Below the pieces are notes generated by a model. The model saw only the letters and a program-made list of their open reading frames with translations, was not told the DNA's origin and searched no databases. A stretch of 11,886 nucleotides of DNA from a virus, in UHGV virus genome UHGV-2004451. The stretch is one strand, 5' to 3'. A program made the position numbers and the translations under genes. This document shows, in pieces, positions 473 to 11,886 of the stretch; position 1 is the stretch's first letter, and each line of letters starts with the position of its first letter.

Positions 473-1255
473 ATGGCCAGATTGAAAACACCGATTTCAT
501 ACTATGGCGGCAAGCAGATGCTTCTGAAGCATATCCTGCCGCTGATTCCCGAACATACGCTCTATACGGAAGCCTTCTGCGGCGGCTGCGCCGTGCTGTT
601 CGCCAAGCCGCCCGCGCAGTGCGAGGTCATCAACGACACGAACACCGAATTGGTGAACTTCTACCGCGTGGCGCAGACGCAGTATGCGGCACTCAAGGCG
701 ATGATCGACGCGACGCTCCACAGCCGCGAGATACACGCGCACGCACGGCATATCAACGAGCATCCGTCGTTCTTCACGCCCGTCGAGCGGGCTTGGGCGG
801 TGTGGGTCTGCACGAAGTTGGGCTTCGCCTCGATGATCGACGGGACGTTCGGCTACGACCGCAGCGGCACGACGACGCTGAAACTCCGCAATGCGAAAGA
901 AGCCTTCACGGAGGAGTTGTGCAGCCGCCTCGACCGCGTTACGGTCGAGTGCGAGGACGGCATCGATGTCATCCGCCGCTACGACTGTCCCGAAGCGTTC
1001 CACTTCGTCGATCCTCCTTATGTCGGCAGCGACTGCGGACACTACAACGGTACGTTCGACGAGGAGGATTTTTCGCGGCTGCTCGACACGCTCGCGACGG
1101 TCGAAGGGAAGTTCATGCTCACGATGTTTCCGCACGAGAAGATAGAACGCCTCGCCGCCCGGTACGGCTGGACGATCCATCGGCTCGACCGCACCATCAC
1201 CGCCTCGAAAGTCTCCCGCCGCCGGCAGGAGGAGTGGATCACGACGAACTACTGA
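473..1255 (+). CDS. Dam-family (D12-class, alpha-type) N6-adenine DNA methyltransferase
   Basis: ATG start 11 nt after the upstream stop. Motifs appear in the order typical of Dam-like enzymes: YYGGK near the N-terminus, EAFCGGCAV (FxGxG-type AdoMet motif I), NDTNTELVNFY, and the catalytic DPPY (FHFVDPPYVG) near the C-terminus. The overlapping ORFs 497..1348(-) and 619..1302(+) have Arg/Gly-rich shadow composition. Confidence 0.9.
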   Translation: MARLKTPISYYGGKQMLLKHILPLIPEHTLYTEAFCGGCAVLFAKPPAQCEVINDTNTELVNFYRVAQTQYAALKAMIDATLHSREIHAHARHINEHPSFFTPVERAWAVWVCTKLGFASMIDGTFGYDRSGTTTLKLRNAKEAFTEELCSRLDRVTVECEDGIDVIRRYDCPEAFHFVDPPYVGSDCGHYNGTFDEEDFSRLLDTLATVEGKFMLTMFPHEKIERLAARYGWTIHRLDRTITASKVSRRRQEEWITTNY

Positions 1256-1265
1256 TATCGCCCAT

Positions 1266-2225
1266 ATGGAACCGAATACTATCCATACCTGCGACGCTCT
1301 GACCGGTCTTCGGCTGCTTCCCGACGAGTCGGTGGACTGCATCGTCACTTCGCCTCCGTACTGGCAGATGCGCGACTACGGCATCGGCTCGATCGTATGG
1401 CCGGACGGTTGGTCGGGACAGTTGGGGTTGGAACCTACGCGCGAGGAGTTCATCGCGCATCTGTGCATGATCTTCGACGAGTGCCGCCGCGTACTGAAAC
1501 CCTCCGGCACGCTGTGGGTGAACTTGGGCGATTCGTATAGCAAACCATACAAATACAACCGCCGACAAGATCCCAAGTGGAGCGAGAATTCGAAGAACAG
1601 CGATTGCCTTATAGACATCAAGGTCGATACGGTGCGTCACCGTATTCCATCCAAGTCGCTCTGCAATATTCCGAACAAGTTCGCTGACGAAATGATCCTG
1701 CGCGGCTGGGTGCTGCGCAACGAGATCATTTGGTACAAGCCCGCCTGTATGCCCGCCTCCGTGCGGGATCGTTTTACGGTGGACTTCGAGAAGATGTTCT
1801 TCTTTACCAAGTCGCAGCGATACTATTTCGAGCAGCAGTTCGAACCGTATGCCGCTTCATCTTTCGACCGCTATAAAAATCCGGTAACGCTCAACGGCAA
1901 AAGCGAAAAGTATCGCTGCATCAGCGGAAAACCTCACGGACGCCTCGAGATAAATCCTCGCGGTCGCAATATGCGGTGCGTGTGGCGTATCCCTTATGAA
2001 CCGAGCCACGAGGCGCACTATGCCATGTATCCTTCGCGATTGGTCGAGACGCCGATCGAAGCCGGATGTCCCGAAGGGGGACTCGTTCTCGATCCCTTTA
2101 TGGGCAGCGGAACGACGGCAGTCGTCGCCCGACGATTAGGACGCCATTACATCGGCTTCGAACCCAATCCGGAGTATGTCGCAATTTGCGAGAAGAGACT
2201 CGAACAGCAAACCCTCTCCCTTTGA
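1266..2225 (+). CDS. Beta-class N4/N6 DNA methyltransferase (N6_N4_Mtase-type); the SPPY catalytic motif favours N4-cytosine or N6-adenine specificity
   Basis: ATG start 10 nt after the stop of the upstream methyltransferase. Catalytic motif IV SPPY (CIVTSPPYW) is N-terminal and AdoMet motif I (VLDPFMGSGTTAVVARRLGRHYIGFE) is C-terminal, which is the beta-class order. A lower-G+C central segment (about 1540-1700) sits where a target-recognition region is expected. Confidence 0.9.
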   Translation: MEPNTIHTCDALTGLRLLPDESVDCIVTSPPYWQMRDYGIGSIVWPDGWSGQLGLEPTREEFIAHLCMIFDECRRVLKPSGTLWVNLGDSYSKPYKYNRRQDPKWSENSKNSDCLIDIKVDTVRHRIPSKSLCNIPNKFADEMILRGWVLRNEIIWYKPACMPASVRDRFTVDFEKMFFFTKSQRYYFEQQFEPYAASSFDRYKNPVTLNGKSEKYRCISGKPHGRLEINPRGRNMRCVWRIPYEPSHEAHYAMYPSRLVETPIEAGCPEGGLVLDPFMGSGTTAVVARRLGRHYIGFEPNPEYVAICEKRLEQQTLSL

Positions 2226-2226
2226 T

Positions 2227-3003
2227 ATGTCTTCGCATACTTACGACAATCCCGCCTATATCGCTTCGTGCTCGTTCGGCAAGGATTCGATCGCTACGAT
2301 CCTCCTTGCCCTCGAGCACGGCGAGCCGCTCGATGCCGCCGTCTTCTCGGAGGTGATGTTCGACCACTGGCGCAATATCAGCGGCGAGATACCCGAACAC
2401 ATCGAGTGGATCTACTCGACGGCTATTCCGCGTCTTGCAGCCTTGGGCGTACGGGTCGATGTCGTCCGTTCGGAGAAAGACTATCTTACGTTATTCCATA
2501 CGGTCATAGGGAGCGGTACGCATAAGGGTATGCTGCGCGGCTGGCTCATCGGCGGCAAGTGCTGCGCCAACCGCGACCTCAAAATCCGGCCCATACATCA
2601 TTATTACGGTCGTTTCCGCAAGCAGGGCGTCGTGCAGTACGTCGGCATCGCGGCCGACGAACCGAGACGCCTCGCGCGGATGCAGGACAAAGGGTATATC
2701 CGTAAAACAAGTCTGCTCGCCAAGTACGGGTACACCGAGGCGGATGCCCGACGCAAGTGCGAAGAATACGGTCTGCTGTCGCCTCTCTACCGAACCTCGC
2801 ATCGGGGCGGTTGCTGGTTCTGCCCCAACTGCCGCATACCGGTCTTCGCCGAACTGCGCCGCCGACATCCCGAACTGTGGCGCGAACTGCAACGGCTTTC
2901 GAAGGTCGGAAATAAGTCATCCGAAGGCTTCAAATACGGGCAGACTTTCGAGGAGATCGAGCGGAGGATGGATCTCTTCGAACACGCGCCGACGCTATTC
3001 TAA
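2227..3003 (+). CDS. PAPS-reductase / DndC-like PP-loop ATP pyrophosphatase family protein (putative nucleotide or DNA modification enzyme)
   Basis: N-terminal PP-loop-like motif SCSFGKDS (SxGxDS type) and a C-terminal cysteine cluster CWFCPNC. The ATG at 2227 lies 1 nt after the TGA of the upstream methyltransferase (TGAtATG), implying translational coupling. An in-frame ATG at 2176 would overlap the upstream gene by 50 nt and is considered less likely. Confidence 0.7.
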   Translation: MSSHTYDNPAYIASCSFGKDSIATILLALEHGEPLDAAVFSEVMFDHWRNISGEIPEHIEWIYSTAIPRLAALGVRVDVVRSEKDYLTLFHTVIGSGTHKGMLRGWLIGGKCCANRDLKIRPIHHYYGRFRKQGVVQYVGIAADEPRRLARMQDKGYIRKTSLLAKYGYTEADARRKCEEYGLLSPLYRTSHRGGCWFCPNCRIPVFAELRRRHPELWRELQRLSKVGNKSSEGFKYGQTFEEIERRMDLFEHAPTLF

Positions 3004-3007
3004 ATAA

Positions 3008-3090
3008 CTGAAAATAAATATGATAATAGTTGCCGGATAACTTGCGTGTTCCGAATAACGATGTTATGTTTGCAGTACGATAAACAACTG
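3008..3090 (+). promoter_or_regulatory. Promoter repeat copy 1 (Bacteroidota-type -33 TTG / -7 TATGTTTG)
   Basis: An ~82-bp AT-rich element about 95% identical to copy 4. TTG at 3042-3044, a 20-nt spacer, and TATGTTTG at 3065-3072 match the TTTG-N19-21-TAnnTTTG consensus of Bacteroidota primary promoters. The leader contains GATAAACAACTG. It lies directly upstream of gene 3118..3540. Confidence 0.6.
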
Positions 3091-3117
3091 AATAATAAAC
3101 GATTAAAACACCCGAAC

Positions 3118-3540
3118 ATGACAAGTGCACAGGCAAAACAGATCGCATCGAACTATATGCGGCAGCAGAGCGATTACGTATTTTCGGCGGTAACGGTTAA
3201 AAGCCTCGCTCCGGCGAACGGACCAGTTAAGGTGTGGCTCACCACCGAAGACGACTACGGGGACGAACTGATCGTCGAGGTCGAGATGGACCCGCAGTCG
3301 AATGAGATCCGCTGGAAGAAGATCTGCAACACGGGACGCCTATCCGAATATCTGAAGCCGGCTACTCGGATCGATAAACTTTCGGCAGGACAACGCTTCC
3401 GGCTGCAAGGCGACTGCGTGGTTTACGAGTTCGTGGACAATGTAAAGGACCGCAGCAGTATTCCCTATATCATCCGACGGGCGGACCGGTCCGGTTGCGT
3501 ATCGAGAGTCGGATGGCAGGAAGTTTTTCCTATCGAGTAA
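3118..3540 (+). CDS. Hypothetical small protein (141 aa), first gene behind promoter repeat copy 1
   Basis: The ORF track gives 3046..3540, but its GTG start lies inside the promoter repeat (-7 box at 3065-3072). The first ATG downstream of the predicted transcription start is 3118. Balanced amino-acid composition; stop TAA at 3538-3540 is followed by a hairpin at 3550-3576. No recognisable motif. Confidence 0.6.
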   Translation: MTSAQAKQIASNYMRQQSDYVFSAVTVKSLAPANGPVKVWLTTEDDYGDELIVEVEMDPQSNEIRWKKICNTGRLSEYLKPATRIDKLSAGQRFRLQGDCVVYEFVDNVKDRSSIPYIIRRADRSGCVSRVGWQEVFPIE

Positions 3541-3549
3541 CCGATAACC

Positions 3550-3576
3550 GCGCACCTTGCCGAAAGGCAGGTGCGC
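3550..3576 (+). terminator. Stem-loop downstream of gene 3118..3540 (possible terminator or RNA processing site)
   Basis: GCGCACCTTGCC-GAAA-GGCAGGTGCGC: an 11-bp GC-rich stem with one bulged base and a GAAA tetraloop. No U-tract follows, so intrinsic-terminator function is uncertain. Confidence 0.4.
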
Positions 3577-3589
3577 ATAAAACGATACG

Positions 3590-3808
3590 ATGATGAAACT
3601 CCGCCGAACAAAAACCGGAACTTACACGATTGCGGGTATTACCGCAACTCAATATCGCGCCCTTGCGGCTGTGCTTACTACCGCCGATGGGCGTTGCTTC
3701 GACGAGCAGGACGGGGACGGCAACTATTACAGCAACGACGATTTCGTCTGCTCGCTCGATGGCGATGAACGCGAGGCATTGCGACAGGTGTGCGACGCGC
3801 TTCGATAA
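3590..3808 (+). CDS. Hypothetical small acidic protein (72 aa)
   Basis: ATG at 3590, 14 nt after the 3550-3576 hairpin. The C-terminal half is Asp/Glu-rich (DEQDGDGNYYSNDDFVCSLDGDERE). The competing frame 3571..3768 is Arg-rich and looks like a shadow ORF. Stop TAA at 3806-3808 lies just before promoter repeat copy 2. Confidence 0.45.
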   Translation: MMKLRRTKTGTYTIAGITATQYRALAAVLTTADGRCFDEQDGDGNYYSNDDFVCSLDGDEREALRQVCDALR

Positions 3809-3819
3809 CGTGTAAGATA

Positions 3820-3901
3820 TTGAAAATAAATGCGATAATAATTGCAGAAAGACTTGCGTGTCCCGAATTATGATGCCATCTTTGCAGCGTGATAAACAAC
3901 T
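3820..3901 (+). promoter_or_regulatory. Promoter repeat copy 2 (degenerate -7 box CATCTTTG)
   Basis: Same element with several substitutions. TTG at 3854-3856, 20-nt spacer, CATCTTTG at 3877-3884, then GATAAACAACT at 3891-3901. Directly upstream of gene 3917..4249. Confidence 0.5.
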
Positions 3902-3916
3902 AATATAGAGCGTATT

Positions 3917-4249
3917 ATGAGTACAAAAGCAAGAATCGGAGTAAGACTTCCCGACGGAAAAATCAAAAGCATCCATATATGGCGGGACGGACATCCCGAT
4001 ACGTTGGGCGAAATGTTGTCTGCGCACTACAATACATTGGAATCGGCAATGGCACTGGTCGAACGAGGCAACATAATCGATGTGGAGGCACGTCTCGAAG
4101 AGTGCCGGTTCGAGAAATCGAATGAACGGTGCGAAACCGAGCCTCGGATTTATAAAACGGTCGCCGCCTACGAACGAGAAATCGAGGAGGATATATGTTA
4201 CAAATATCTCTATCGGGACGGCAAGTGGGAATACCGGGCGGTCGATTAG
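3917..4249 (+). CDS. Hypothetical small protein (110 aa), behind promoter repeat copy 2
   Basis: ATG at 3917, about 25 nt downstream of the predicted transcription start of promoter copy 2. Protein-like composition with a Glu-rich C-terminus. Followed by a structured 3' region containing hairpins at 4285-4302 and 4337-4367. Confidence 0.65.
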   Translation: MSTKARIGVRLPDGKIKSIHIWRDGHPDTLGEMLSAHYNTLESAMALVERGNIIDVEARLEECRFEKSNERCETEPRIYKTVAAYEREIEEDICYKYLYRDGKWEYRAVD

Positions 4250-4284
4250 TAACCGACTTCCGATCGTAAGGAGCGAATGCTCCG

Positions 4285-4304
4285 AGCCTCCGACGGGAGG
4301 CTTT
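4285..4304 (+). terminator. Hairpin plus short T-run in the 3' region of gene 3917..4249
   Basis: AGCCTCC-GACG-GGAGGCT (perfect 7-bp stem) followed by TT. It is preceded by a second small hairpin GGAGC-GAAT-GCTCC at 4270-4283. Confidence 0.35.
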
Positions 4305-4316
4305 CCCTCGTTTCGT

Positions 4317-4397
4317 CCATTCAGTTGTTTATTGCGACCGGAGCCGTGCATCGTGTACGGCTCCGGTTTTCGTTCGAAGGCGGGACATTGTTTCTGC
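4317..4397 (+). repeat. Conserved structured 3' element, copy A
   Basis: CCATTCAGTTGTTTATTGCG, then the CCGGAGCCG/CGGCTCCGG hairpin with a loop containing CATCNTGT, then GGGACATTGTTTCTGC. Shares flank, stem core, loop motif and downstream motif with copy B. Confidence 0.6.
4337..4370 (+). terminator. Intrinsic-terminator-like hairpin (core of conserved 3' element copy A)
   Basis: ACCGGAGCCGT-GCATCGTGT-ACGGCTCCGGT: a perfect 11-bp stem followed by TTTT. Confidence 0.55.
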
Positions 4398-4469
4398 AAC
4401 GGATCTTCGGCAGCATGTATATTTACCATATGGGATATGCTTGATAAATAGTTGATATTCTTTGAATTA

Positions 4470-4533
4470 AGTTGTCGATAAACTTGCGCGTCCCGAATAA
4501 TGATGTTATGTTTGCAGTGCAACAAACAATTGA
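4470..4533 (+). promoter_or_regulatory. Promoter repeat copy 3 (core only; upstream part divergent)
   Basis: TTG at 4484-4486, 20-nt spacer, TATGTTTG at 4507-4514, with the conserved core CTTGCGCGTCCCGAATAATGATGTTATGTTTGCAGTGC. The leader motif is altered to CAACAAACAATTG. Upstream of gene 4560..4778. Confidence 0.55.
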
Positions 4534-4559
4534 ACTACAATCTATTAAACGACTCGATC

Positions 4560-4778
4560 ATGAATACTGCGAATCGAAAAAGAACGGAGATCGACGCCGA
4601 ACTCGACCGGTTGGAGGTCGAATTCGAAAAGAACCGTAAGGAGATGCAAGGCCTTGCCGACGAGAACAGACGTGCCGGCAACCGCTACGGCGAATTATCG
4701 AATGCGAATCACGACATCAACAACCGGATCCTCACATTGCTCGCTGAGCGTTGGGAATCGGAAGAGACGGCTGATTGA
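4560..4778 (+). CDS. Hypothetical small coiled-coil protein (72 aa), behind promoter repeat copy 3
   Basis: The ORF track gives 4500..4778, but that start lies inside promoter copy 3 (-7 box at 4507-4514). The first ATG in the leader is 4560. The sequence is charged with heptad-like spacing (EIDAELDRLEVEFEKNRKEMQGLADENRR). Stop TGA at 4776-4778 is followed by a GC-rich hairpin. Confidence 0.55.
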   Translation: MNTANRKRTEIDAELDRLEVEFEKNRKEMQGLADENRRAGNRYGELSNANHDINNRILTLLAERWESEETAD

Positions 4779-4791
4779 CGAAACGAGAGAC

Positions 4792-4824
4792 GACCCCGCC
4801 GAGAAACCGTCTTCGGGGCGGGGT
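4792..4824 (+). terminator. GC-rich hairpin downstream of gene 4560..4778
   Basis: ACCCCGCC...GGCGGGGT: an 8-bp G+C stem with a 16-nt loop that can partly pair (GAA/TTC), followed by TT. It begins 14 nt after the stop codon. Confidence 0.45.
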
Positions 4825-4855
4825 TAAGACCCGAAACAGGAGAACACATAAAGAG

Positions 4856-5053
4856 ATGAAAACGATGAATGCAAATGCAACGGTAGGCGACAAGATTCGC
4901 ATTATCCATCTTCGCGACGAGGACAGCCGTTACGACGGCAAGGAGGGTACGATCGAGTTCATCGACTCGCTCGGACAACTGCACGGCACGTGGGGTGGCT
5001 TGGCAGTCATTCCCGAAGTCGATCGGTTCGTAATTATCGAGAAACCGGAATAA
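4856..5053 (+). CDS. Hypothetical small protein (66 aa), beta-rich, reminiscent of small DUF-type domains common in phages and mobile elements
   Basis: The ORF track gives 4775..5053, starting at a TTG that overlaps the upstream hairpin. The first ATG after the hairpin is 4856. The motif GDKIRIIHLRDEDSRYDGKEGTIEFIDSLGQLHGTWGGLAVIPEVDRFVI looks like a small SH3/KOW-like beta domain. That assignment comes from memory only and is not verified. Confidence 0.5.
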   Translation: MKTMNANATVGDKIRIIHLRDEDSRYDGKEGTIEFIDSLGQLHGTWGGLAVIPEVDRFVIIEKPE

Positions 5054-5074
5054 TCGCCGGCAACGATAATGCTC

Positions 5075-5096
5075 GGTTCCGCCATCTTTTCGGAAC
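5075..5096 (+). terminator. Weak hairpin downstream of gene 4856..5053
   Basis: GGTTCCG-CCATCTTTT-CGGAAC: a 6-bp stem with a U-rich loop, lying between the stop codon and promoter repeat copy 4. Confidence 0.3.
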
Positions 5097-5106
5097 ACCT
5101 AATTTA

Positions 5107-5188
5107 CTGAAAATAAATACGATAATAGTCGCCGAACAACTTGCGTGTTCCGAATAACGATGTTATGTTTGCAGTACGATAAACAACT
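5107..5188 (+). promoter_or_regulatory. Promoter repeat copy 4 (near-identical to copy 1)
   Basis: TTG at 5141-5143, 20-nt spacer, TATGTTTG at 5164-5171, leader GATAAACAACT at 5178-5188. About 4 mismatches to copy 1 over 82 bp. Directly upstream of gene 5204..5491. Confidence 0.6.
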
Positions 5189-5203
5189 AAAAAAGAGCGA
5201 ATT

Positions 5204-5491
5204 ATGAGAACGAACATCGAACGGTTTTTAGAGAGATTCCCGAAGAATGCCACGAATTGGGCGCAGGCGACGGACGAGGTGCGCGACATGGCTCGCAAGG
5301 CTCGCGAATTGTTGGAAGAGTACGAAGGCGTCATCGTCGAACCGGTAAATTTCCGGGCTATCGAGACCCCGGCCGAGTGGAATACCGAAGGTCGCGAGTT
5401 CATCCTGACGAATTTCGATCGCATGGCGGATAGGACCAAAGAGCGCTTCTACGACTACTTCCGCGAGTGGTTCGAAGGCGAAGAGGAATAG
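5204..5491 (+). CDS. Hypothetical small protein (95 aa) with acidic C-terminus, behind promoter repeat copy 4
   Basis: ATG at 5204, about 25 nt downstream of the predicted transcription start of promoter copy 4. C-terminus is FREWFEGEEE. Stop TAG at 5489-5491 is followed by a perfect 14-bp hairpin at 5500-5536. Confidence 0.65.
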   Translation: MRTNIERFLERFPKNATNWAQATDEVRDMARKARELLEEYEGVIVEPVNFRAIETPAEWNTEGREFILTNFDRMADRTKERFYDYFREWFEGEEE

Positions 5492-5672: not shown

Positions 5673-5716
5673 GATGAGGCCTTTTGCCATTTTACCTTTA
5701 TTCCCGCGACAAAGGT

Positions 5717-8581
5717 ATGGCGATTTTCGGTCTAAAATATTACGCTGAACTTCGCTCGAAGTACAAGGGCGTTTTGTGGCGCGTGGAGATTTCGGAGCGG
5801 GGGTACGCAGGTCCGTCGGAGGAGATGGCCTTCGACGGCGGTACGCCGTTGCAGATTACGTGGGAGAAACGGGGCGACGAGTTCTACGTGCCGGTCAAGG
5901 CTTCGGAGGCGACCATCAATATCCTCTGCAAGGAGAATTTCCATTACCTGGCTCTGTTCACCTCCGATCCCCGTTATTTTCGCGTCTCGATTTTCCGCAA
6001 TCGGCAGCTCTATTGGCGGGGCTACGTCACCTCCGACCTCTACTCCGAGAACTTCACCGCTCCGCCCTATACCGTTACGATCAAGGCCGTGGACGGCTTC
6101 AACCTCTTGTCGAGCATTCCGTTCCGCGACCTCGTACATATCGGCATCGCGGGCAGGCGGTCGCTATGGGAACTGCTCTCCTCCTGCATCGACTTGTTGG
6201 AGTTGGATCTCGATACGGCGGACTGGATGGATCTGTATGTCGAGGGCATGGACGAGAACGCCTCTTCGCTCCGTCAAACCTATATCGACCTCGAACGGCT
6301 CTACTACGTCTACGAGGAGCCTACCTATCGCGACATCCTCGAACTGTGCCTGCGTCCGTTCGCCGGACAGATCTTCCAGTCGAACGGTGCCCTGCATATC
6401 CGCCGCGCCGTATCGCTCTACCGAACTGCCCGTCCCGTGAATTTCTATCGCGTCGGCACGGAGCATCCCGTCGGGCGGATCGTTACGGGCAGCGGACTGC
6501 GGCTCGTGATCCATACCGGTGCGCAGGTCGTCACATCGGCTGCACGCGAGCGCATCGACGGCATGTGGACGGGCGACCTGCACATCGAGGGAAGTTCGAC
6601 GCTCGACATCGTCCCTGCGCTGCGCAAGGTCTCGGTCGATGTAAAGAACAAGAGCCTCGACAACCTGATCGCCCGCATCGGGTTCTACGATCCCGACGCT
6701 TGGACGGATCCGCACGGCTTCGTCTCCGTGAAGAGCGGAGAGGAACTCTATTTCAGCGGCGAGGATGCCTATCGGGGTGCGGAAGTCGTAACTCGGGGCT
6801 TTCCCGTCGAGCAGTGCAACTTCCCGCTCGTATGGGAGTTCGGGTTGCAGACCTACCATCGGGAGTGGGGACTGGGCATTTACCGCCCGAACGAAAGCGT
6901 CGATGTCGCGGTGCATTACGGCGTCCGCATCGTCGGCGAAAAGGCGACATACAGCCTCGCCGAGAGCGGTTCGTGGGTGCAGTCCTCCGACGGGGAGATC
7001 GCGAGTACGGTCAAGACCGGCAACGAGCAGAACATGAAGATCGAGATCGACGGCATCCCCTGCGACGGCGAGTGGCGGTTCTTCGTCCGGCAGACGCTCA
7101 TCGGCAAGATCACGACCTATACCGACCGCTTCGGCAATCCGAGCGGCCGCACTTCGGGCTATATGGAGAGCGCCGCGTTCCGCAAGATGACGCTCTCGAT
7201 CGATGCGGGCGACAGCTACGACAAGGGTTTGCGCTACGAGTCGCTCGTCGATCCCGCGAACAATGTCGATATGTCCGTAACGCTTCCCGTGAGCGATATT
7301 CCCGCCATTCCGAACGACCGGCTGCTCTATGCGCTCTACTACCTCGATGCCGCCGGCAATCCCACGCGCATCTGGCATACGAAAGGTCGGAACGACTACG
7401 ACACGCTGGTCGGTCATATCGTGCAGGGAGCATTGCGGTACAAGCAGCTGCCGAGCCGGCGCATCACGGGCGAGATCTTCACGGGGCAGCATATCGATAT
7501 GAATACGGTGGTTCGGGACGACAAGTTCCTGAACGCCGCCTATTACCTGAACTCCATCGAACTGAATGCCCTCGACGACTCCTACAACAGCGAACTCACG
7601 GAGATGCCGCGCCTGCTCGCAACGGAGAGACCGCCGGAGGGCGACGACTGCATAGCGGTCGCGACGCTCTCCTTCACGGTCGGCAAGGCGATCCGCTGCC
7701 TGAACCGTCTGCTGCTCCAGTCCGTCGATAAAAAGACGGTCTATGCCTTCGACACCGCCACGCGGCAGGTACGGGAGATCTACCGCAGCACGGCATCCTT
7801 CGAGATGTACGAGGCGGACGAGGGTTTCGTCGCGGTGGACGGGAAAGGGGTCCGCTACCTCGACTATCGCGGTACGGTCGAACGGATATATACCCCGCCG
7901 GAGGAGTACCGCAACGTCGCGACCTACATGGACGGATATATCCATATCCTGAAATCCTACCGGCAATATATCGGTCCGCGGGGCGGCGATGCCGGCGGAC
8001 GCAGCGCCCGCACGGCAGAGGACGAGGATCCGAACTATCGCACCTATCGTTACCTCTCGCGCCCGGAGTGCAAGTACATTTCGCCCGATGCCTCGACCGG
8101 ATATCGCGGACGGGGATATGCCTACGAGGGTACGCCGATGTCGGGTGCGATCCTCGCCCTGCGGCGTACGGAAAATACGATCGTCGTGAATACCTCGCAT
8201 GGCGCCTATCTGCACGACAAGCGGTTCCACCAGCCCTGTAAGATGCTGCAATTCGCTGCGGGCGAGCAGATCGTCACCGTCTCCGACAACTATATCGGCA
8301 TCAACGCCGACGATATGCTGTGGTTCTATCGGCGGGATTCGATTACCGAGCGGACGCTGCTCCGGCGGTTGGGACGCTGGGCGGATCACGCCGACCATAC
8401 GATGAGCGAGGTCGTACACTCCTACGACGACGGCATCTTCATCCGGAACTTCCGCGACGACACGACGACCGACGTTCGGAACGCCGCCGGCTGGGGCGAG
8501 AACATCATGGGGCTGTTTTTCATCTGCGGCGACCTCTATATCGTGCGCGAACGGGCGATTTACAAATACATTCCTGAATAA
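5717..8581 (+). CDS. Large hypothetical protein (954 aa from the first ATG; 965 aa if the TTG at 5684 is used); possibly a virion or tail-associated structural protein
   Basis: This is the only one of three overlapping long ORFs with protein-like composition (aromatic-rich, balanced). The overlapping 5776..7731(+) frame is Arg/Gly-rich and 6164..8854(-) is Ser/Arg-rich, both typical shadow ORFs of GC-rich coding DNA. No Walker A or other catalytic motif was seen. The gene lies in the same + strand block as the tape measure gene. The function call is inference only. Confidence 0.75.
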   Translation: MAIFGLKYYAELRSKYKGVLWRVEISERGYAGPSEEMAFDGGTPLQITWEKRGDEFYVPVKASEATINILCKENFHYLALFTSDPRYFRVSIFRNRQLYWRGYVTSDLYSENFTAPPYTVTIKAVDGFNLLSSIPFRDLVHIGIAGRRSLWELLSSCIDLLELDLDTADWMDLYVEGMDENASSLRQTYIDLERLYYVYEEPTYRDILELCLRPFAGQIFQSNGALHIRRAVSLYRTARPVNFYRVGTEHPVGRIVTGSGLRLVIHTGAQVVTSAARERIDGMWTGDLHIEGSSTLDIVPALRKVSVDVKNKSLDNLIARIGFYDPDAWTDPHGFVSVKSGEELYFSGEDAYRGAEVVTRGFPVEQCNFPLVWEFGLQTYHREWGLGIYRPNESVDVAVHYGVRIVGEKATYSLAESGSWVQSSDGEIASTVKTGNEQNMKIEIDGIPCDGEWRFFVRQTLIGKITTYTDRFGNPSGRTSGYMESAAFRKMTLSIDAGDSYDKGLRYESLVDPANNVDMSVTLPVSDIPAIPNDRLLYALYYLDAAGNPTRIWHTKGRNDYDTLVGHIVQGALRYKQLPSRRITGEIFTGQHIDMNTVVRDDKFLNAAYYLNSIELNALDDSYNSELTEMPRLLATERPPEGDDCIAVATLSFTVGKAIRCLNRLLLQSVDKKTVYAFDTATRQVREIYRSTASFEMYEADEGFVAVDGKGVRYLDYRGTVERIYTPPEEYRNVATYMDGYIHILKSYRQYIGPRGGDAGGRSARTAEDEDPNYRTYRYLSRPECKYISPDASTGYRGRGYAYEGTPMSGAILALRRTENTIVVNTSHGAYLHDKRFHQPCKMLQFAAGEQIVTVSDNYIGINADDMLWFYRRDSITERTLLRRLGRWADHADHTMSEVVHSYDDGIFIRNFRDDTTTDVRNAAGWGENIMGLFFICGDLYIVRERAIYKYIPE

Positions 8582-8591
8582 GTGCGAAACT

Positions 8592-8966
8592 ATGGAAACA
8601 CTATCCATCATTCTGAACTTCATTCTTGCCAGCGGGTTGGCGGGAACGATCCTCTTTTTCAACGCGAAGAAGCGCAAGGAGAACGCGGCCGCCGACTCCG
8701 CCGAATTAGCGAACACGGAGAAGGTCGTGGCGATCCAATCCGAGCAGATCACGCGGCTGGACGGGCGCGTGGAGAAACTCGAAGAGAAGGTCGGCAAACT
8801 CGAAATCATCATCGAGCACAAGGACGTGGAGATCGACCGCAGCCGCATCGTCATCCGACAGGCCTACAAGTGCGAAACGCCGCCCGAACATTGCCCGGTC
8901 TTGCTCAAAAGAGCCGAGTTGGAGCGCAAGCGCAAAGAGACCGACGAAAATAACCGAAAATCATAA
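8592..8966 (+). CDS. Small membrane-anchored coiled-coil protein (124 aa); i-spanin-like or holin-like architecture
   Basis: ATG 11 nt after the upstream stop. N-terminal hydrophobic helix SIILNFILASGLAGTILFF followed by a charged heptad-like region (RLDGRVEKLEEKVGKLEIIIEHKDVEID). Two Cys near the C-terminus. The competing 8582..8953 frame is an Arg-rich shadow. Confidence 0.6.
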   Translation: METLSIILNFILASGLAGTILFFNAKKRKENAAADSAELANTEKVVAIQSEQITRLDGRVEKLEEKVGKLEIIIEHKDVEIDRSRIVIRQAYKCETPPEHCPVLLKRAELERKRKETDENNRKS

Positions 8967-9015
8967 AGCGATGAGCAGAGGACTGAATAATTGTAACCGA
9001 CGCCGCGGAGCGAGA

Positions 9016-9039
9016 GCAGAACCCGCTTGCGGGCTCTGC
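9016..9039 (+). terminator. Hairpin in the intergenic region after gene 8592..8966
   Basis: GCAGAACCCGC-TT-GCGGGCTCTGC: an approximately 9-bp stem with one A-C mismatch. Weak evidence. Confidence 0.3.
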
Positions 9040-9099
9040 CGAGCCTCAAGGAGGAAACGATTGCTACAATGACATTCCGGAACGAATAACACAGATATT

Positions 9100-9522
9100 A
9101 TGAACGAGAAAACTTTGCCGAGAGGGATGCGCAATCGTAATCCCGGCAATATCCGCCGGTCGGCGACGAAGTATCTGGGCGAAGTTGCGCCCTCGCGCGA
9201 TGCCGCATTCAAGCAGTTCGAGACGATGGCGTGGGGCTACCGCGCGATGTTCGTGCTGCTGGACTCCTACTCCCGCAAGGGCTACCGGACAATCCGGCAG
9301 ATGATCTCGCGCTACGCTCCGCCCATCGAGAACCATACCGAAAACTATATCCGTTGTGTGGCCGAATGGTCGGGTATCGGCGCCGACGAGCCGGTCGATA
9401 CGCAGGCGGGCGAGACGATGATTCCTATCGTGGCGGCTATGTCGCAGGTGGAAAACGGGCAACCGGCGGTACTATCGGACGTCGAGGCGGGCTGGACGCT
9501 CTATCTGCAACACAAACCCTAA
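9100..9522 (+). CDS. Hypothetical protein (140 aa) immediately upstream of the tape measure gene
   Basis: ATG at 9100; stop TAA at 9520-9522 lies only 6 nt before the tape measure start. Protein-like composition with the N-terminal motif RNRNPGNIR. Function not recognised. Confidence 0.65.
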   Translation: MNEKTLPRGMRNRNPGNIRRSATKYLGEVAPSRDAAFKQFETMAWGYRAMFVLLDSYSRKGYRTIRQMISRYAPPIENHTENYIRCVAEWSGIGADEPVDTQAGETMIPIVAAMSQVENGQPAVLSDVEAGWTLYLQHKP

Positions 9523-9528
9523 ACAGCC

Positions 9529-11886
9529 ATGTCCCGGAGAATCGCCGATTTACTTATAAAGATCGGAGCCGACTCGTATGAGTTCCAACAGAAGGCGCAA
9601 CAGGTCGAGAAAGGACTCGGCTCGCTCGAAAAGAAGCTGACCTCCGTCGGCAAGTCGCTCTCGCTGAAGCTCACCGCACCCCTTGCTGCATTGGGCGGCG
9701 TGTCGCTGCACCTGGCCGATGTGCAGGCCAAAGCCGAGGCGAAGGTGCAGCAGGCGCTCAAGGTTACGAATCAGGCCGTCGGTTACAACTTCCGGCAGTT
9801 GGCCGACTACGCTTCGGAGTTGCAGGGCAAGACACTCTTCGGCGACGAGACGATCCTCGACAAATCCACCGCCCGCCTGTTGGCTTTTACTAACATCACG
9901 GGCGAGAACTTCAAGCGTACGCAGGCGTTGGCATTGGACCTCGCCACGGCGTTGGAGATGGATTTGGGTTCGGCGTCGTTGCAGTTGGGCAAGGCGCTCT
10001 CCGATCCCGCGACGAAGCTCTCGTCGCTGTCGCGTGCCGGTATCGCCTTTTCCAAGGAGCAGACGGAGGTAATCAAGAAGCTCGCCGAGACGGGCGACAT
10101 AGCCAAAGCGCAGGCGATGATCCTCGACGAGTTGGAGCGCAAGTTCGGCGGGCAGGCCGAAGCCGCCGCACGGACGGGACTCGGCACCGTGCAGCAGCTC
10201 AAGAATGCGTGGGGCGACTTCCTCGAACGGATCGGTGCGGCCATCATGCCTTTCGCGACGAAGATAGCGGGTGCGCTCTCGACGGTCGTGCAGATGCTGC
10301 AATCGATGTCGCCGGCGATGATGCAGACGATCGTCGTCGTGGCGGGGCTGGTGGCTGCGATCGGTCCCCTTTCGCTCGGAATCGGCGCCGTGATCAAGGT
10401 GCTGCCGATGCTGGCGGCGGGATTTACGGCTCTGTTGTCGCCCGTCGGATTGATTATGGCGGCGGTCCTCGCGCTCGGTGCGGCATTCGCCTACGCCCGC
10501 CTCCAGAAGCAGAAGATGATCGACGAGATGGCCGAAACCGAATCGCTCGACGAGCTCGAACGCAAGTTGCAGGAGAATATCGCCGAGCAGAAAGAGATCA
10601 TCGCCACGACGACCAAGACGCGGATGGTTCCGAATTTCGGTGGATTGGTCGCCGGATTTATCTTGCAGAAAGTCCCCGACGAATCGAAACTCGCACCCCT
10701 GCGCAAGGAGTACGATCTGCTGACGGCAGCGATCGAAAAGAAACGCGAAACGGAGAAGAAGGCGGCCGAGGCGCAGGCCGAACTGGACAAGGTAACGGAC
10801 GAGGCTCGCAAGCAAACCGAGGAGTTGATGAAGTCCATCGCCGGAACCAACGCGCAGACGGAGCAGAGCACGGGCATCATCGGTAAATTGCAGGCGCGGA
10901 TCGAGGCCCTCGAAAAGAAGAAACTGCTGCCCGAATCGACCGTCGAGGATATCGCTGCGGCGAATGCCGAGATCGGGAAGCTACAAAAAGAGCTGGAGCG
11001 GATCCGAAATATCAAGCCCGAAGACCTGAAGCCCGTCGTCAAGATGGACGGTATTCTGCCCGCGGGCTTCGAGTTGGAACTGCCGGCTCCGAAACTCAAA
11101 ATGGGCGATCTGAAACCCGTAACATCGCAATATGCGCAGCAGATGCAGGCGATATTCGGTGCGGTGCGCGAAGGGCTTTACGGCTGGGCGGACGACAACA
11201 GCGCATACTTGCAAAATAACCTCGCCGATACGGTCTCGATGGTCGAGAACTACACGACAGCGCTGACGGCGAAGGGCTGGTCGTTCTCGGCGGCATTGGA
11301 GCATGTCCACGCCACGATTGCGGAGGTGATGACACGCTTCGATCAGCAGGTGTCGAAGTTTATGGCCGACAGCATCGTCGCTGCGGCGGAGGCTATCGGG
11401 CAGATCATCGCCGGCGATTTGGGATTCGGAGGGCTGATGAAAGCGATTCTGACGCAGTTCGCCAATTTTCTGAAAAATATCGGCTCGCAGCTCATCGAGT
11501 TCGGCGTGATGATCATCGCCTTCAAATCGGCGTTGAGATCCGTCCTCGCTAACCCGTGGGCGGCGATCGCCATCGGTGCAGCAATGGTCGCGGCAGCAGC
11601 CGTGATGACGGCGCTCATCAACAAGAATGCGCAGGAGAGCGTGCCGGCATTGGCCAACGGCGGTCTGGTATACGGTCCTACCTATGCGATGGTCGGCGAC
11701 AATCCCAATGCCGGTACGGATCCCGAAGTCATCGCTCCGCTGTCGAAGTTGCAGGCGATGCTCCCGACAGGCGGCAGCGCGCAGAACCTACGAATAACCC
11801 TCGGCGGTCAATTGACTGCCAAGGGTCGGGATTTGGTGTATGTTCTCGGAAAAGAGAACTTCAAGTCAGAGGTGCTGGGTGGGTGA
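9529..11886 (+). CDS. Phage tail tape measure protein (785 aa)
   Basis: The N-terminal region matches the conserved tape measure core signature as I recall it (LGKALSDPATKLSSLSRAGIAFSKEQTEVIKKLAETGDIAKAQAMILDELERKFGGQAEAA). It is followed by long Gly/Ala-rich hydrophobic segments (IMPFATKIAGALSTVV...GLVAAIGPLSLGIGAV and AIAIGAAMVAAAAVMTALI) and an extended Glu/Lys-rich coiled-coil region. Stop TGA at 11884-11886 coincides with the window end. Minus-strand and off-frame ORFs inside it are GC-shadow artefacts. Confidence 0.85.
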   Translation: MSRRIADLLIKIGADSYEFQQKAQQVEKGLGSLEKKLTSVGKSLSLKLTAPLAALGGVSLHLADVQAKAEAKVQQALKVTNQAVGYNFRQLADYASELQGKTLFGDETILDKSTARLLAFTNITGENFKRTQALALDLATALEMDLGSASLQLGKALSDPATKLSSLSRAGIAFSKEQTEVIKKLAETGDIAKAQAMILDELERKFGGQAEAAARTGLGTVQQLKNAWGDFLERIGAAIMPFATKIAGALSTVVQMLQSMSPAMMQTIVVVAGLVAAIGPLSLGIGAVIKVLPMLAAGFTALLSPVGLIMAAVLALGAAFAYARLQKQKMIDEMAETESLDELERKLQENIAEQKEIIATTTKTRMVPNFGGLVAGFILQKVPDESKLAPLRKEYDLLTAAIEKKRETEKKAAEAQAELDKVTDEARKQTEELMKSIAGTNAQTEQSTGIIGKLQARIEALEKKKLLPESTVEDIAAANAEIGKLQKELERIRNIKPEDLKPVVKMDGILPAGFELELPAPKLKMGDLKPVTSQYAQQMQAIFGAVREGLYGWADDNSAYLQNNLADTVSMVENYTTALTAKGWSFSAALEHVHATIAEVMTRFDQQVSKFMADSIVAAAEAIGQIIAGDLGFGGLMKAILTQFANFLKNIGSQLIEFGVMIIAFKSALRSVLANPWAAIAIGAAMVAAAAVMTALINKNAQESVPALANGGLVYGPTYAMVGDNPNAGTDPEVIAPLSKLQAMLPTGGSAQNLRITLGGQLTAKGRDLVYVLGKENFKSEVLGG

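Follow-up and report, generated by a model that had tools for sequence, protein, structure and literature searches.

A stretch of 11,886 nucleotides from the UHGV virus genome UHGV-2004451 (hereafter the window) carries, at positions 8592–8966, a gene for a small membrane-anchored protein, which raises the question of what such a protein is doing between a large virion gene and the tape measure gene of a tailed phage. This target gene starts with ATG, encodes a bitopic membrane protein of 124 amino acids (METLSIILNFILASGLAGTILFFNAKKRKENAAADSAELANTEKVVAIQSEQITRLDGRVEKLEEKVGKLEIIIEHKDVEIDRSRIVIRQAYKCETPPEHCPVLLKRAELERKRKETDENNRKS) and, like all features of the window given below, lies on the plus strand. 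A preliminary description of the locus had proposed an inner-membrane spanin (i-spanin)-like or a holin-like layout; our analysis strongly supports a role in lysis and favours the holin-like half of this proposal over the i-spanin half. Based on sequence comparisons, we put at roughly one in two the probability that the target protein is a single-pass holin of a new family of Bacteroidales phages, serving an Alistipes siphovirus-type prophage as the holin-type membrane part of a lysis module whose three components are dispersed.

The architecture of the protein was analyzed first at the level of its own sequence. Residues 4–22/23 are strongly hydrophobic (mean Kyte–Doolittle hydropathy (KD) of 2.08 over 19 residues), confirming the single N-terminal transmembrane helix noted earlier (residues 4–23, LSIILNFILASGLAGTILFF, 8601–8660), one face of which is lined by small residues (A13/S14/G15 and A17/G18/T19). 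The helix is followed, on the predicted cytoplasmic side, by a basic juxtamembrane KKRK cluster (residues 26–29) and a conserved 'AxAD/AEA..E..N' segment (residues 30–41; together 8667–8714), and then by a heptad-repeat segment covering residues ~46–88 (8727–8855), in which I53, L56, V60, L63, V67, L70, I74, I81 and I88 provide the hydrophobic a/d pattern. A coiled coil is therefore present as previously described, although with about five heptads it is moderate rather than long. The sole cysteines of the protein are the two C-terminal ones already recognized, C94 and C101 (TGC at 8871–8873 and 8892–8894), which close a loop at the start of the last helix and form the family hallmark C94-x6-C101-P-V-L (8871–8903). 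The charges of the protein, 23 Lys + Arg and 22 Asp + Glu, are all found after the transmembrane domain (TMD), the chain ending in the tail KRAELERKRKETDENNRKS. In agreement with this layout, an AlphaFold2 (AF2) model based on a 48-sequence alignment (mean pLDDT 94.9) consists of a continuous helix 2–91, which includes the coiled-coil segment, a loop 92–101 and a second helix 102–123.

Searches with the target protein did not assign it to a named family. No model of Pfam or NCBIfam reached its cut-off, sequence comparison with PDB chains returned coiled-coil noise alone (E > 0.1), and Foldseek gave no match of the AF2 model in the PDB; a long helix holds no fold information. The protein falls to PHROGs 32423/18116/23256, all of 'unknown function', the best matches being phrog_32423 (1.5e-5) and phrog_18116 (6e-4). 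Homologues are nevertheless numerous: 270 were found at E ≤ 0.01 in a 90%-clustered collection, all of them without a name, labelled 'hypothetical' or, in two clusters, called 'shock protein B', and a profile search of 1.84 billion representatives returned 168 clusters at E ≤ 1e-3, so that the target gene is no chance open reading frame (ORF). A second profile-based search recovered the close Alistipes subfamily only and no further names, and neither megablast of window positions 5684–11886 against a phage collection nor a tblastn comparison of phage records with the crAss-like member P0139 yielded a match. The exact window protein occurs in 3590 blocks of an assembly collection, the contigs read being human-gut metagenome assemblies, and the close subfamily is spread over genomes of Alistipes, Rikenellaceae and further Bacteroidales, Candidatus Alistipes excrementavium carrying a protein of 99% identity. 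The locus is also present, nearly unchanged, on two short contigs binned into Roseburia and Oscillospiraceae metagenome-assembled genomes (L174 and L187), most likely because Alistipes prophage contigs were mis-binned and not because of a host jump.

Conservation within the family highlights the helix and the cysteine loop. Alignments of 43 and 48 sequences, including homologues of ~25% identity, contain only two invariant columns, C94 and C101, with P102 conserved to at least 90%, and the motif C-x(5-10)-C[PAV][VIA][LIVMA] is present in 143 of 148 family sequences. The members of ~25% identity share the entire plan, i.e. a very short acidic N-terminal tail, a Gly/Ser-rich transmembrane helix, a basic cluster, 'AEA..E..N' (alignment consensus after the helix, 'RKxxAEAxxxExxN'), a coiled coil and C-x(5-10)-C-P-V-L. 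Among 25 close homologues N9, S14, G15, G18 and T19 of the helix are invariant, and its small-residue face, which reads GGG in distant members, would suit helix–helix packing in an oligomer. An extra CxxC lies within the Lys/Glu-rich tail of 17 members, a feature that seems more typical of cytoplasmic metal sites.

To place this family in a functional context, we read the flanking genes of 164 loci, which contain 88 unique family proteins in 19 clusters at 60% identity. In 17/17 clusters with enough flanking sequence the family gene is accompanied by lysis-type genes: an automated scan detected a lysin or lipoprotein gene within 2 kb in 15 of the 17, and at the two others (L067 and L149) the lipoprotein gene was recognized by eye. 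The endolysins beside the family gene belong to five unrelated enzyme families (PHA02564, Amidase_2, Peptidase_M15, DUF5675 and Amidase_3). A PHA02564 ORF follows the family gene in all 34 Rikenellaceae genome loci with enough downstream sequence; in MT836414 the order is family gene, PHA02564 lysin and lipoprotein with TMD, and in L016/17 it is PHA02564, family gene and an overlapping lipoprotein with TMD. Bacteroides phage C3_41T2LP and 44 IMG/VR relatives show the family gene, a Peptidase_M15 endolysin (phrog_894, 1.2e-25) and a lipoprotein with TMD (MKKVLLLIILLPLLFSC...), the peptidase gene adjoining the family gene in 44/44 loci of this group; an M15 endolysin also follows the family gene in L073. 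The Hankyphage group (Bacteroides phage p00 and relatives) is arranged as capsid, Amidase_2 lysin (phrog_822, 3.9e-53), family gene, lipoprotein with TMD and tail genes, with Amidase_2 next to the family gene at each of the 63 loci judged. L066 carries the family gene, an Amidase_3 endolysin (phrog_435, 5e-30) and a lipoprotein with TMD, and crAss-like contigs a 198-residue type-II bitopic protein, the family gene and DUF5675, which is a C82-like peptidase domain and proposed lysin (bioRxiv 10.64898/2026.04.11.717860). In the A5 group, a lipoprotein with TMD precedes the family gene between terminase and portal, and no recognized lysin is found within 2 kb. Overall, the automated scan identified a lipoprotein with C-terminal TMD in at least 11 of the 17 clusters, and more were seen by eye.

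A slot filled by five unrelated families of peptidoglycan hydrolases is the signature of an endolysin slot, and it follows that the family stands in a lysis module; that the family gene belongs to such a module is, from these comparisons, very probable. The preliminary description had seen no obvious lysis cassette around the target gene, a view which changes with the conserved endolysin/lipoprotein synteny, the type of lysin in the window having gone unrecognized.

This lysin is encoded directly downstream of the target gene, at 9100–9522 (140 amino acids; an alternative start at 9127 gives the 131-residue product called in public assemblies), and thus stands between the target gene and the tape measure gene, which had been taken for immediate neighbours. 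Its product is an endolysin consisting of a free-standing catalytic domain of the PHA02564/Enc34 type with a lysozyme fold and without a signal peptide, and matches phrog_873 'endolysin' (5.5e-43) as well as, in the PDB, the Hafnia phage Enc34 endolysin (7Q47, 3.5e-11) and the N-terminus of Gp29 (9VVP, 2.5e-16). The muralytic activity of the Enc34 (PHA02564) domain has been demonstrated, and Glu131, Tyr95 and the aromatic residue 79 of Enc34 were described as catalytic or substrate-positioning (PMC8943055). In a HMMER alignment these three residues correspond to E118 (within E-N-G), Y84 and Y72 of the window lysin. Endolysins of the Enc34/M4Lys type share this catalytic domain, including the catalytic Glu and Tyr, but carry it fused to a C-terminal two-helix TMD, whereas the window lysin is the domain alone without TMD. 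The membrane function is predicted to be supplied in trans by the separate upstream target gene.

The non-coding gap between target and lysin genes (8967–9099) is unusually long at 134 nt, as relatives show overlaps or gaps of under 25 nt, and contains an imperfect, GC-rich hairpin without a T-run, GCAGAACCCGC-TT-GCGGGCTCTGC, at about 9017–9040. A scan for promoter and terminator consensus sequences around the target gene gave nothing beyond shuffle expectation.

The third component was found at the very start of the window. Positions 1–462 contain the 3′ 153 codons of a gene for a 169-residue lipoprotein with a C-terminal transmembrane helix (KD 2.08). Window position 1 is the codon of the lipobox Cys17, the translation beginning 'CSPLR...', and the signal peptide MYPKITLIILTIAASG is encoded immediately before the window. 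The preliminary description reported no lipoprotein partner; its lipobox was missed because the window begins exactly at the Cys17 codon. The gene is complete in contig L001 (1362–1871), where the protein starts with MYPKITLIILTIAASGC and ends with WLKWATALVALTLLLLLFLKLR, and holds the same position in related prophages. In the prophage of the window it directly follows putative tail chaperone genes and is 8 kb away from the lysin gene. Within and next to window positions 8592–9100, no ORF with a lipobox was found. A lipoprotein signal together with a C-terminal TMD in one polypeptide defines unimolecular spanins (u-spanins), a single protein of this kind being sufficient in phage T1 (PMC6139136). 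Both elements are combined in the product of this gene, from which we infer that it is a spanin.

The orientation of the target protein in the membrane is central to the choice between a holin and a spanin subunit. Across 148 unique family sequences, the N-terminal flank of the helix averages 0.08 Lys + Arg and 1.15 Asp + Glu and the 15-residue C-terminal flank 4.81 Lys + Arg; Lys and Arg are more abundant on the C-terminal side in every sequence (148/148) and wholly absent from the N-terminal side in 137. Under the positive-inside rule, this bias predicts an N-out/C-in topology of the family, in which coiled coil and cysteines would be cytoplasmic. Such a pattern of flanking charges is carried by ZipA and TatA-type N-out proteins. 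I-spanins require N-in/C-out, and lambda Rz, T7 gp18.5 and P2 LysB all have N-terminal Lys/Arg.

These results bear directly on the view that the target protein is a spanin component, i.e. an i-spanin-like subunit (N-in/C-out) whose periplasmic coiled coil and cysteines would work with a nearby or overlapping lipoprotein, the two forming a Bacteroidales variant of the two-component spanin whose lipoprotein has retained a C-terminal anchor as well. We consider this unlikely. The N-terminal TMD, helical coiled coil, two cysteines and length of 120–170 residues do match Rz-type i-spanins (PMC6139136), and a disulfide would fit two cysteines that bracket a loop of variable length. Yet the flanking charges predict the opposite topology throughout the family, and the matches to 'Rz-like spanin' PHROGs (phrog_739, E 0.034; phrog_10152, E 0.062) are far from significant, with no Pfam match to an Rz or phage-lysis family.

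The neighbouring genes can be read in both directions. In the Hankyphage group, family and lipoprotein genes overlap in different frames for each of the 50 unique family proteins with enough downstream sequence, the lipobox Cys codon falling 136–181 nt before the family stop codon. This overlap covers only the variable, acidic, Gly/Pro-rich low-complexity tail that follows the conserved CPVL core, the pattern expected from a drifted stop codon. The A5 group likewise has its lipoprotein gene directly beside the family gene without a nearby lysin, and the separate multi-TMD holin-like genes of some cassettes also speak for a spanin component. On the other hand, the partner lipoprotein is by itself equipped with the two anchors of a unimolecular spanin, crAss-like contigs encode a separate type-II bitopic protein next to the family gene, and no periplasmic cysteines are conserved among the module lipoproteins. 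A cognate outer-membrane spanin (o-spanin) gene would lie 8 kb upstream here; in relatives it overlaps or abuts the family gene, but its product has its own C-terminal TMD. Most modules would, moreover, be without a holin if the family protein were a spanin. The charge bias in 148/148 sequences, the presence of a u-spanin-type or bitopic protein in the modules and the lack of a significant Rz match are thus the reasons for which an i-spanin is disfavoured.

Three components are needed for the lysis of a diderm host: holin, endolysin and a disruptor of the outer membrane. As the lipoprotein with TMD (in crAss-like contigs the 198-residue type-II bitopic protein) is the obvious candidate for the envelope-spanning role, the family protein becomes the holin candidate by elimination. 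No signal or signal-arrest-release (SAR) sequence was found in the lysins read across lineages, and each of them therefore requires a hole-former. In the C3_41T2LP group (44 loci) the late lysis module contains no other strongly hydrophobic gene. Similarly, in the visible 31 kb of the prophage of the window, from portal to integrase, strong hydrophobic helices are encoded only by the target, lipoprotein and tape measure genes, in addition to one weak internal segment in the integrase. The holin criteria that we applied, those of Wang, Smith & Young, concern size (below ~150 residues) and TMD, a charged C-terminus and the cassette: the target is a protein of 124 residues with one TMD (residues 4–23), its 23 Lys + Arg and 22 Asp + Glu lie past that TMD, and its gene is immediately upstream of the PHA02564 endolysin gene.

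Taken together, these findings suggest a model in which the single N-terminal helix would insert into the cytoplasmic membrane with its 3-residue acidic N-terminal tail outside and the rest of the protein inside (N-out/C-in). The Gly/Ser/Ala-faced helix and the cytoplasmic coiled coil may then drive oligomerization, which the invariant Cys-loop (C94...C101-PVL), a hairpin between the long and the last helix, could stabilize or control, either as an inter-subunit metal site or as a thiol switch. At a critical concentration, the oligomers would form membrane lesions and release the signal-less PHA02564 endolysin (9100–9522) to the peptidoglycan, after which the lipoprotein with C-terminal TMD (gene ending at 462) would act as a unimolecular spanin and disrupt the outer membrane. 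Oligomerization, hole formation and the role of the cysteines are each to be read as putative.

Several observations weigh against a holin. The topology is a prediction from the positive-inside rule alone, and a Cys pair across a variable loop of 5–10 residues is more suggestive of a disulfide staple, as would befit a periplasmic domain. Described holin families are unmatched by the target in the Pfam, NCBIfam and PHROG searches; holin families are many and unrelated, and homology is not required for membership of this functional class. In Hankyphage p00, a 128-residue ORF with a signal-like N-terminus and ~3 transmembrane helices resembles a conventional holin and lies between the amidase and family genes. 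A minority of other cassettes likewise have a multi-TMD holin-like gene beside the family gene, at L113-type loci and at L013 (127 residues, 3 TMDs), L064 (78 residues, 2 TMDs) and L073 (163 residues, 5 TMDs), and C3_41T2LP has three other small multi-TMD genes in early regions. Given these extra holin-like genes, the family protein is possibly not the hole-former, or not the sole one. The left arm of the prophage lies outside the 31 kb scanned for hydrophobic genes. Furthermore, in several lineages (the Hankyphage overlap and the A5 pair without lysin) the family gene seems more tightly linked to the lipoprotein gene than to the lysin gene; such pairing is typical of two-component spanin genes, and the overlap recalls Rz/Rz1.

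For p00 (BK010646, L167), the reference record gives no annotation to the ORF of 128 residues with signal and 3 TMDs (3518–3904), the family gene (3932–4411) or the overlapping lipoprotein-TMD ORF (to 4700), and the start deposited for this last ORF (20888) probably truncates its lipoprotein signal. A protein of ~160 residues and about five transmembrane helices with a shared 'S.S(E/D)TYY' motif is encoded at L073:2941–3432 and on the minus strand of OR296439 (41987–42475); it is directly upstream of the family gene in L073 and 22 kb away, in the early region, in C3_41T2LP, and the L073 copy has no PHROG match.

The co-occurrence with multi-TMD genes is also the main argument for a regulator of lysis, i.e. 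an antiholin, co-holin or membrane-anchored timing factor such as an XhlA-like partner of a multi-TMD holin, in which the cytoplasmic coiled coil and a reactive Cys pair would sense the state of the cell and time the true holin. PBSX and SPP1 pair a bitopic coiled-coil protein (XhlA/gp24.1) with a multi-TMD holin, the family gene has been kept in Hankyphage and certain other cassettes that also contain a multi-TMD holin-like gene, and an invariant, predicted cytoplasmic Cys pair at the N-terminus of a helix would suit a thiol or metal switch. In most lineages, however, the module has no other membrane protein to regulate, and the multi-TMD genes are sporadic, mutually non-homologous and, where scanned, without Pfam or PHROG match, while the family gene is constant. 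We regard a regulatory role as quite improbable. The same low expectation applies to a lysis-control element particular to Bacteroidales phages, neither classical holin nor spanin, with a cytoplasm-facing coiled coil and a Cys-loop that binds metal or senses thiol redox. Its TMD would gate or activate the lipoprotein-TMD protein, the two forming one machine that permeabilizes the inner and disrupts the outer membrane; this would explain both the out-of-frame overlap and the tighter linkage to the lipoprotein than to the lysin.

The position of the target gene could also speak for a function outside lysis, such as a membrane-associated tail-assembly factor, a chaperone of the tape measure protein, or a superinfection-exclusion or defence moron inserted upstream of the tape measure gene. 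In the window, the target gene indeed stands in the tail morphogenesis block, between the ~950-residue virion protein and tape measure genes, in relatives the family gene is translationally coupled to both neighbours, and one source names a homologue 'shock protein B'. Elsewhere, however, the family gene travels together with lysin and lipoprotein genes and not with tail genes, being located between portal and tail (C3_41T2LP), capsid and tail (Hankyphage) or terminase and portal (A5), or directly beside capsid genes (crAss-like). In addition, a likely chaperone pair (119 and 95 residues, after the major tail protein) is already present, and PADLOC yields only a 27-residue Cmr5 match over the transmembrane helix. 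Such a function is therefore highly improbable, and the assembly and superinfection-exclusion roles envisaged in the preliminary description gained no support from Pfam, PHROG, NCBIfam or PADLOC searches.

Three specific candidates were rejected. A tail assembly chaperone does not fit a protein with a TMD, no chaperone family match and no linkage to tape measure genes elsewhere, next to the existing pair of 119 and 95 residues; PspB (TIGR02976/PF06667) scored 13.6 bits against a cut-off of 51.7 (E 0.061); and anti-phage defence or exclusion was represented by the Cmr5 fragment alone (E ~1e-3).

The source of the window is an HK97-type siphovirus prophage of Alistipes, in which the target gene is a real and conserved gene. 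In public contigs, the prophage reads from the left: portal, S78 protease, an inserted restriction-modification pair, capsid, connectors, an inserted AbiEii-type pair, major tail protein, the 119- and 95-residue genes (likely chaperones), the 169-residue lipoprotein gene and two DNA methylases. Variable small genes, the ~954-residue virion protein, the target, the 131/140-residue lysin and the 785-residue tape measure protein come next, followed by a reverse-strand restriction enzyme, three more tail genes, the integrase and host genes. This order is kept in prophages whose family protein is 73–77% identical, while the accessory genes of the island differ; there, a few bases are shared between the successive frames of the ~930-residue, family and lysin genes. 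The virion gene (5684–8581; 954/965 residues), a putative tail protein matching phrog_30639 (1e-19) and the 'virion structural protein' phrog_23570 (1.8e-10), is conserved directly upstream of the target in relatives, and the complete tape measure gene occupies 9529–11886 (785 residues, as in public contigs; phrog_27166, 2.3e-54); both are context, the virion gene being no part of the lysis function.

The lipoprotein gene is separated from the target/lysin pair by a variable accessory ('moron') island (473–5491), whose flanking genes are constant among related prophages and which encodes a Dam-type methylase, an N6_N4 methylase, a 275-residue ORF with weak matches to PRK13795 models and small ORFs. 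The lysis module of this lineage is thus oddly placed within the tail gene block and split by accessory DNA. The Dam-type MethyltransfD12 and N6_N4_Mtase/CcrM-like methyltransferases and the 275-residue ORF are inserted at 473–3003, between chaperone and tape measure genes, and the wider prophage contains further inserted restriction genes of the BsuBI/PstI and NgoFVII types in addition to the AbiEii pair. A direct repeat of ~100–115 nt is present in four copies of 60–80% identity (3001–3128, 3813–3940, 4470–4570 and 5100–5227), each in the gap ahead of a small plus-strand ORF (3046–3540, 3917–4249, 4500–4778 and 5204–5491); it could be a promoter or regulatory element, or mark the boundaries of shuffled mini-cassettes.

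To our knowledge, neither a holin nor a spanin from any Bacteroidota phage has been characterized experimentally, and our literature search found none described for Bacteroides, crAss-like or Hankyphage genomes. In the GenBank records inspected, including those of Hankyphage p00 and cultured Bacteroides phages, the family protein is 'hypothetical', and relatives occur in Hankyphage, crAss-like contigs and many Alistipes, Bacteroides and Rikenellaceae genomes. The family is accordingly presented as a new and widespread candidate holin family, whose N-out/C-in topology and Cys-loop, if true, would add an unusual holin architecture. The conserved trio of family protein, interchangeable endolysin and lipoprotein with TMD offers a practical marker of lysis modules in gut Bacteroidales phages and names concrete genes for studying prophage induction and lysis in the gut microbiome.

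By the searches made, the target protein is outside any described holin, spanin, PspB, chaperone or defence family, and each known system resembles it in part. PspB proteins have an N-terminal TMD, an N-out/C-in topology and a short cytoplasmic leucine-zipper-like helix, and thus share the N-terminal TMD and predicted orientation of the target, which in contrast is phage-encoded in lysis modules, longer and equipped with the Cys-loop. Rz-type i-spanins of phage lambda are alike in N-terminal TMD, long helical coiled coil, two cysteines, similar length and, in many relatives, an adjacent or overlapping lipoprotein gene; the target differs in its predicted reverse topology, in the lack of a significant Rz match and in a partner with its own C-terminal TMD, encoded 8 kb away in the window. 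In XhlA/gp24.1 (PBSX, SPP1), as in the C-terminus of the mycobacteriophage D29 holin, a cytoplasmic coiled coil assists holin assembly. XhlA/gp24.1 is, like the target, a small bitopic lysis protein and co-occurs with a multi-TMD holin, as could be the case in Hankyphage, but its TMD is C-terminal, its hosts are monoderm, it has no Cys-loop and homology is not detectable.

The closest parallel is provided by the single-TMD holins (class III T4 gpT; T7 gp17.5 and T1 gp13-type), which are likewise small proteins with one TMD and a charged or large soluble part, encoded beside the endolysin gene. T4 gpT is oriented N-in with a periplasmic domain, the opposite of the N-out/C-in topology and cytoplasmic coiled coil predicted for the target, which also has the invariant Cys-x(5-10)-Cys-Pro loop and lacks both a dual-start motif and sequence similarity to these holins. 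MT836414, C3_41T2LP and L066 nonetheless mirror the gene order of T1 (holin, endolysin, u-spanin), and by analogy the target protein would work most like a single-TMD holin in a T1-style cassette.

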